Of a DNA stretch of 64,000 nucleotides, positions 1,030-1,326 are shown one piece after another. The stretch lies in the NCBI RefSeq assembly GCF_054482595.1, contig NZ_CM137008.1; one strand, written 5' to 3'. How positions within the stretch are numbered: position 1 is the first letter of the stretch; the number at the start of each line of letters is the position of its first letter. The notes beneath the pieces were generated by a model. It ran no database searches. It was given only the letters and a program-made list of their open reading frames with translations, and was not told the origin of the DNA. The position numbers were made by a program, and so were the translations under genes.

Positions 1030-1106
1030 TGGTTGCGGGGGCCGGATTTGAACCGACGACCTTCGGGTTATGAGCCCGACGAGCTACCAGGCTGCTCCAC
1101 CCCGCG
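1030..1106 (-). tRNA. metV: tRNA-fMet (initiator, anticodon CAT), copy 3 of 3
   Basis: Reverse complement reads CGCGGGGTGGAGCAGCCTGGTAGCTCGTCGGGCTCATAACCCGAAGGTCGTCGGTTCAAATCCGGCCCCCGCAACCA, 77 nt with encoded CCA; symbol assigned from position in the operon. Confidence 0.9.
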
Positions 1107-1139
1107 TCACCGTATTGCTTTTACTTCATCAAATTTGAT

Positions 1140-1216
1140 TGGTTGCGGGGGCCGGATTTGAACCGACGACCTTCGGGTTATGAGCCCGACGAGCTACCAG
1201 GCTGCTCCACCCCGCG
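1140..1216 (-). tRNA. metW: tRNA-fMet (initiator), copy 2 of 3
   Basis: Identical 77-nt sequence, 110 nt downstream of copy 3. Confidence 0.9.
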
Positions 1217-1249
1217 TCACCGTACTGCTTTACTTCATCAAATTTTAAT

Positions 1250-1326
1250 TGGTTGCGGGGGCCGGATTTGAACCGACGACCTTCGGGTTATGAGCCCGAC
1301 GAGCTACCAGGCTGCTCCACCCCGCG
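1250..1326 (-). tRNA. metZ: tRNA-fMet (initiator), promoter-proximal copy
   Basis: Identical 77-nt sequence; 110-nt periodicity including conserved inter-tRNA spacers. Confidence 0.9.

Follow-up and report, generated by a model that had tools for sequence, protein, structure and literature searches.

A tandem array of three identical predicted initiator tRNA genes matching the metZWV operon of Escherichia coli

Three identical tRNA genes stand in tandem on the minus strand near the beginning of the DNA analysed here, a stretch of 64,000 nt referred to as the window, and the locus they form is, judged by its sequence, almost certainly the metZ-metW-metV operon of Escherichia coli. The promoter-proximal gene, metZ, lies at 1250..1326 and comprises 77 nt with the CCA encoded; the middle gene, metW, lies at 1140..1216; and the promoter-distal gene, metV, at 1030..1106, its 3' end also being the boundary of the metV island site. 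No base differs from metZWV of K-12 MG1655 (b2814-b2816, metZ being b2814) in any of the three genes, in the metZ-metW spacer, in the 60 nt that precede metZ or in the terminator hairpin, and the flanks and orientation are also the same, with metZ beside mltA and metV beside amiC. In RefSeq, the K-12 genes metZ, metW and metV are annotated as 'tRNA-initiator Met(CAU)'. K-12 differs from the window at a single base of the metW-metV spacer, which is A in place of the K-12 G, and at one or two positions past the terminator hairpin. Over 1,001 nt around the locus, K-12 strains are 98.9% identical to the window and many other E. coli strains match it at 100%, and the first 25 kb of the window are 100% identical to several complete E. 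coli genomes. The locus is long known, indeed a textbook case, and nothing reported here changes existing knowledge of it.

Several programs agree on the geometry of the array. Across the 64 kb of the window ARAGORN calls three tRNA genes and no others, each a minus-strand tRNA-Met with anticodon CAT, and the Rfam tRNA model (RF00005) is covered in full by each gene with 61.4 bits, against a gathering score of 29. Tandem Repeats Finder (TRF) reports a single array at 1026-1328 with a period of 110, 2.8 copies, 97% matches and a score of 576. The three 77-nt genes are base-for-base identical and start exactly 110 nt apart, and a fixed-period trio of identical 77-mers cannot arise by chance. Together with the identity to K-12, these results bear out the sequence-only reading, which had described three identical 77-nt initiator tRNA genes on the minus strand with a 110-nt period, convergent with amiC; the minus-strand calls indeed face the RefSeq end of amiC at 955. 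Two of its adjectives need narrowing. The period is precise in the strain of the window, whereas elsewhere in E. coli the units of the array measure 109-111 nt, and the repetition is perfect for the genes only, the 110-nt units differing through their spacers, which are 91% alike.

The array tRNA, which in the RNA sense reads CGCGGGGTGGAGCAGCCTGGTAGCTCGTCGGGCTCATAACCCGAAGGTCGTCGGTTCAAATCCGGCCCCCGCAACCA, carries the marks of an initiator. Its MFE fold is a cloverleaf, and ARAGORN places the anticodon cat at position 35. At the end of the acceptor stem C1 faces A72; the MFE fold gives position 1 no partner, and the pair 1:72 is flagged as non-canonical in the Rfam alignment. The C1xA72 mismatch is the formylation determinant of bacterial initiator tRNA. 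In the D stem, A11:U24 is present (A at position 11 and T at 24), unlike elongator tRNAs, which have a pyrimidine at 11 and a purine at 24. The anticodon stem contains three consecutive G:C pairs, G29-G31 with C39-C41, which are paired in the MFE fold; GGG and CCC occupy positions 30-32 and 40-42 of the sequence, since an additional D-loop nucleotide offsets the sequence count from the standard numbering by one. The gene encodes its CCA, preceded by A73 as the discriminator.

Position 46 of the array tRNA, within GAAGGTCG, is G, the residue of the fMet1 form: fMet1 and fMet2 are defined by G (m7G in RNA) and A, respectively, at this position (PMC3017606). G46 together with all of the initiator marks identifies it as tRNA-fMet1, and the product of the array should be formylated and used for initiation in the same way as the identical K-12 tRNA. 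The initiator tRNA of metY, which is fMet2 in K-12, differs from fMet1 only at position 46 (PMC3017606). metY is a single gene at another locus, the fourth initiator gene of E. coli, where it heads the operon metY-rimP-nusA-infB and is transcribed together with its protein genes.

By sequence, a single upstream promoter with -10 and -35 elements precedes the array, which also has a terminator of its own. The promoter and a short 5' leader extend over 1327..1377 on the minus strand and comprise a UP-element-like A8 tract (1377..1370), a -35 element TTGCAT (1367..1362), a -10 element TATAGT (1345..1340) located 16 nt from the -35, a GCGC discriminator (1339..1336) and a leader that ends in CCACGGA at 1327. 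The order on the minus strand is thus GGGGTAAAAAAAAGG-TTGCAT-(16 nt)-TATAGT-GCGC-ATCCACGGA, with the tRNA coming next. Promoters of rRNA and tRNA genes under growth-rate and stringent control are built in this way, with 16 nt between the two elements, a discriminator rich in GC and an A-tract farther upstream. A generic sigma-70 consensus scan of 850-1650 found no promoter, because the -35 hexamer TTGCAT matches the consensus at 3 of 6 positions only; we therefore placed the promoter by K-12 identity, published mutations and cross-genus conservation, overriding the scan. In an alignment of about 25 enterobacterial taxa, hardly any change is seen within the A-tract, TTGCA, GAGTATAGTGCGC and the leader, and their flanks vary. 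The published K-12 knock-out primers match the trailer of the window and, exactly, its leader, and promoter-down mutations in K-12, a G-to-A just upstream of the -10 and a T-to-C within it, lower the level of tRNA-fMet1 (PMC3017606). From these elements we infer a transcription start at 1331-1335, to within about 5 nt.

The arrangement extends well beyond E. coli. When each species was represented by one genome, a scan for pairs of initiator genes separated by 15-45 nt gave 65 loci, nearly all of them in Enterobacterales, and MltA and usually AmiC are encoded beside the array. The arrays of Salmonella, Citrobacter, Enterobacter, Klebsiella, Kluyvera, Yersinia, Dickeya, Edwardsiella and Tatumella have the same amiC-array-mltA synteny. 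Arrays of other Enterobacterales have TTGCA-N-GAGTATAGTGCGC as promoter core and ACACCC-N4-GGGTG-T7 as terminator, like the window, but they differ in copy number (2-4) and in their spacers. These are 25 to 171 nt long and belong to two or more sequence families, one of them with a hairpin. Most genera have three copies; Salmonella, Dickeya and E. albertii have two, and Tatumella saanichensis has four. Loci of Ferrimonas and Marinobacter hold five to six copies, and neither AmiC nor MltA was detected at these loci. The array is old, conserved and dynamic.

Two internal transcribed spacers separate the genes. The metZ-metW spacer (AUUAAAAUUUGAUGAAGUAAAGCAGUACGGUGA; 1217..1249, minus strand) is the K-12 spacer, and the metW-metV spacer (1107..1139, minus strand) is 91% identical to it; two bases are substituted between them, and two 1-nt indels offset each other. 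Both are 33 nt long, in agreement with the sequence-only reading, which had called the 33-nt spacers conserved. In K-12, both metZWV spacers co-purify with the small RNAs (sRNAs) RybB and MicF (PMC4583644), and Hfq binds the metZWV precursor including its intergenic regions (PMC10710024). A comparable case is the 3' external transcribed spacer of glyW-cysT-leuZ, likewise an excised tRNA-precursor fragment that binds an sRNA; the leuZ spacer is cited as a decoy of RyhB (PMC10710024). In comparison with that sponge, the metZWV spacers are known by sRNA co-purification in K-12 and by the duplex prediction given here.

The predicted duplex of the metZ-metW spacer with the 5' end of RybB has an energy of -15.8 kcal/mol in both K-12 and the window, and 5.6% of shuffles are as good. 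For the metW-metV spacer, the predicted energy is -16.5 kcal/mol in K-12 and -11.6 kcal/mol in the window. The weaker duplex of the window is caused by its single G-to-A difference from K-12, which falls inside the AAAGCAGU core, where the 5' end of RybB can pair. Shuffled sequences equal the three stronger duplexes in about 4-6% of cases, and the metW-metV spacer of the window in 24%. The predicted pairing between RybB and the spacers is only suggestive.

It is possible that recent duplication or gene conversion alone accounts for the conservation of the spacers and that they have no function beyond being processed away, an explanation to which we give somewhat less than an even chance. Spacer identity averages 0.77 within an array, as against 0.58-0.64 at the same position between taxa, and it reaches 100% within the arrays of LF82 and one Klebsiella. 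This within-array likeness indicates modest concerted evolution. The spacer families vary by genus, and the RybB duplex energies barely beat those of shuffles. The published pull-downs, on the other hand, which recovered RybB and MicF with both spacers (PMC4583644) and Hfq on the precursor (PMC10710024), speak for a further role. The ends of the spacers are also conserved across genera, AUUAAAAU after the CCA and ACGGUGA or GACGGA before +1, as expected of processing signals.

Copy number within E. coli was estimated from three evenly spaced samples of 60 genomes each and from a total count of tRNA matches. The metZWV locus, in the order amiC-array-mltA, is present in 5,425 of the 5,426 complete E. 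coli genomes. In one sample the array has three copies in 54 of the 60 genomes, two copies in 2, one in 2 and four in 1, with 1 assembly gap; in another, three copies are again found in 54, two in 3 and one in 2, with the same assembly gap. When all initiator genes including metY are counted (n = 60), 55 genomes have four, 2 have three, 2 have two and 1 has six. Three copies are thus present in about 90% of the sampled complete genomes, and about 9% depart from this number, mostly by loss. Over the whole collection, the 77-nt query matches 21,174 places in 5,425 genomes. With metY counted, this amounts to 3.90 per genome on average, with extremes of 1 and 8, and the average falls below the canonical four initiator genes. 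Single-copy genomes number roughly 180-280 (3-5%), as estimated from their position at the bottom of the match ranking. Among the same 5,425 genomes, four of the matches lie on plasmids and one chromosome carries eight.

The sequence-only reading had regarded the repeats as substrates for copy-number change and had proposed a comparison across strains. Such change has evidently taken place, since arrays of one, two, four and five copies in complete E. coli genomes were confirmed by reading the DNA. Denoting the metZ-metW type of spacer as B and the metW-metV type as A, the four-copy array has the spacer order B, B and an A-like spacer of 32 nt, and the two-copy array retains B. Unequal exchange within the identical genes would be expected to produce both orders. 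Some of the variants in public assemblies may be assembly errors, as illustrated by ST648: its apparent zero-copy state is not a deletion, the assembly having 'n' exactly at the position of the array. Nevertheless, two copies are present in the Sanger-finished IAI39 and in two separate O6:H16 strains, which argues for a real polymorphism.

Whether the polymorphism is maintained by selection instead of neutral slippage is a separate matter. Under selection, initiation capacity and fidelity, and perhaps the dose of spacers available to RybB, MicF and Hfq, would be balanced against cost; we regard this as unlikely, though conceivable. Some variants are common to related strains, the two O6:H16 strains with two copies being an example. 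If selection does act, it would concern the locus in the population, and the window itself holds the standard three-copy allele.

At its distal end the operon has an intrinsic terminator (994..1023, minus strand), identified by a terminator scan and by folding, which consists of a hairpin at 1023..1004 (GAACACCC-UAAC-GGGUGUUU) and a U-rich tail. The hairpin begins 6 nt past the metV CCA, has a folding energy of -11.1 kcal/mol with a z score of -4.3, and is followed by T7. A second intrinsic terminator, that of amiC, lies outside the operon at 957..984 on the plus strand, as indicated by folding, and has the symmetrical form A5-stem-loop-stem-U7. The two hairpins are 18 nt apart. The sequence-only reading had assigned the array to the terminator of amiC, and a single bidirectional terminator common to the two convergent units does find some basis in the amiC hairpin (957-982): flanked by an A-run and a U-run, it folds with -12.3 kcal/mol on the plus strand with U7 and still with -7.9 kcal/mol on the minus strand with U5, and at such a short distance past the tRNA hairpin it could catch read-through. 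However, the hairpin with U7 directly 3' of metV is the stronger of the two on the minus strand. Moreover, the motif ACACCC-N4-GGGTG-T7-GTTTCTG is kept after the last tRNA in most of about 25 enterobacterial taxa, whereas beyond it towards amiC the sequence differs between genera, so that the tRNA hairpin accompanies the array even where the amiC side is unrelated. In LF82, where 35 kb separate metV and amiC, another hairpin with T6 stands after metV. We consider a shared terminator distinctly improbable. The assignment to amiC must be replaced by separate, back-to-back terminators, of which that of the operon is its own and is conserved across Enterobacterales; the amiC hairpin could at most serve as a back-up for tRNA read-through.

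Genomes differ in the interval between metV and amiC. The match to the locus stops short of amiC in 36% of complete E. coli genomes, and reading the DNA of LF82 (L005, 19383-20011; L071, 9900-15500) reveals about 34.7 kb in place of the 73-nt amiC-metV intergenic region, which corresponds to 954-1026 of the window and contains the two terminators. The inserted DNA begins beside amiC with a sugar-utilisation module (PRD/PTS/MalY/KpsF/phosphoglycerate-dehydrogenase), continues with 17 nt that repeat the 3' end of the tRNA, and closes with a type VI secretion cluster that ends 3 nt from the metV CCA. ST648 and PRO_A-1420 have the sugar-utilisation module only. A divergent amiC was considered as the cause of a class of genomes with 67-68% coverage and was rejected, an island between amiC and metV being found instead; the four-copy strain 144 belongs to this class solely from a split BLAST match. 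Roughly speaking, a type VI secretion island occupies the metV site in about one third of strains, and the window represents the empty state of this site.

In the RefSeq annotation of a strain identical over the 25 kb, amiC extends to 955, three tRNA-Met genes have the same coordinates as in the window, and mltA occupies 1535-2632, starting at an ATG at 1535 and encoding the standard lipoprotein of 365 aa. A mechanical list of open reading frames (ORFs) contains three that run through the array, 970..1161 (63 aa), 1290..1478 (62 aa) and 1253..2632 (459 aa), the last being the mltA frame extended to a TTG start. That any of them is truly coding is very improbable: apart from their occurrence in this list, they overlap the tRNA genes, the promoter and the terminator of the opposite strand, RefSeq annotates none of them beside amiC, the tRNA genes and the 365-aa mltA, and MltA homologues of other genera align from the start at 1535. 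The two short frames and the 5' extension of mltA had been taken as artefacts from the sequence, and the RefSeq gene models concur. The chance that the array encodes elongator tRNA-Met or a lysidine-modified tRNA-Ile2 with a CAU anticodon is slighter still. The label 'tRNA-Met' with anticodon CAT given by ARAGORN and RefSeq PGAP does not separate the three classes, but the initiator identity elements C1xA72 (with 1:72 unpaired), A11:U24 and the three anticodon-stem G:C pairs are all present in a sequence equal to K-12 metZ, metW and metV, which are annotated as initiator genes.

Several further features of the window were recorded alongside the operon. Past mltA, the mltA-tcdA intergenic region (2633-2870) is 238 nt long, compared with 76 nt in LF82 and strain 144. 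It contains two REP-like palindromic units, at about 2711-2750 and 2790-2820, flanked by a direct repeat AGGGTGAGGGATAACCTC at about 2669 and 2832, and an Rfam ES036/CssrF match at 2754-2796 with 46.5 bits; the extra DNA looks like an ordinary REP/BIME insertion. Rfam matches at gathering level place GcvB at 5812-6017 on the minus strand, CsrB at 24198-24557 on the plus strand and the sok antitoxin RNA, cut by the window end, at 63896-64000 on the plus strand, all at their expected E. coli positions. Three sub-threshold Rfam matches in the region of the array were regarded as due to chance or to the tRNA and terminator sequences themselves: YrlA (27 bits against a gathering score of 69), AaHKsRNA82 (28 against 51) and, at 956-1055, the rimP leader (21 against 47), for which the match provides no evidence here. 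A short CRISPR array lies at 46884-47339 between queE and ygcE, recognised by a TRF period of 61 and by a RefSeq CRISPR direct_repeat in the identical strain, and no cas genes are annotated in 50 kb of that strain's RefSeq listing. The eno-queE interval (42130-45701, minus strand) contains a TPM-domain and LemA-family cluster with one truncated pseudogene in the identical strain.

The action of the operon can be proposed on the model of K-12, as transcription, processing and formylation in the window strain would be expected to follow those of the identical locus. One growth-rate-type sigma-70 promoter upstream of 1326 would drive the whole operon on the minus strand, and transcription would stop at the operon's own hairpin and U-run (1023..994), giving a tricistronic precursor about 340 nt long. 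The A/U-rich spacers would then be cut by RNase E, the 5' ends formed by RNase P, and the 3' ends trimmed by exonucleases to the encoded CCA; this combination of RNase E, RNase P and exonucleases is the general route of tRNA maturation in E. coli. By northern blot, the metZWV precursor has been estimated at about 500 nt (PMC10710024). The predicted transcript measures about 340 nt from promoter to terminator (994-1335, minus strand) and about 380 nt if it extends to the amiC hairpin; the gap between 340 and 500 nt could reflect the gel estimate, an upstream start or read-through.

Processing would release three copies of tRNA-fMet1, most of the initiator tRNA of the cell, in line with K-12, in which metZWV is described as one three-gene operon giving most of the initiator tRNA (PMC3017606). 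The tRNA would be charged by MetRS, formylated owing to the C1xA72 mismatch, and would enter the ribosomal P site directly, where the three anticodon-stem G:C pairs would be checked. Gene copy number would set the abundance of the tRNA, and abundance would in turn protect the fidelity of initiation: in K-12, tRNA levels track gene copy number, and low initiator levels let non-initiator tRNAs, which are without the three G:C pairs, initiate (PMC3017606). Deletion of metZWV causes growth defects under some conditions (PMC11480407). The identical 77-nt genes would permit unequal recombination, by which copy number may drift from 1 to at least 5 and the spacers may become partly homogenised, and the excised spacers may have the reported second role of binding Hfq, RybB and MicF.

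For the annotation of this DNA, the assignment explains three spurious ORFs, including the false 5' extension of mltA, and fixes the promoter and the terminator of the operon. In addition, islands are seen to insert at the 3' end of metV, a site left unoccupied in the strain of the window. For the organism, the weight of the locus lies in its share of the initiator tRNA genes, which in E. coli is about three quarters.
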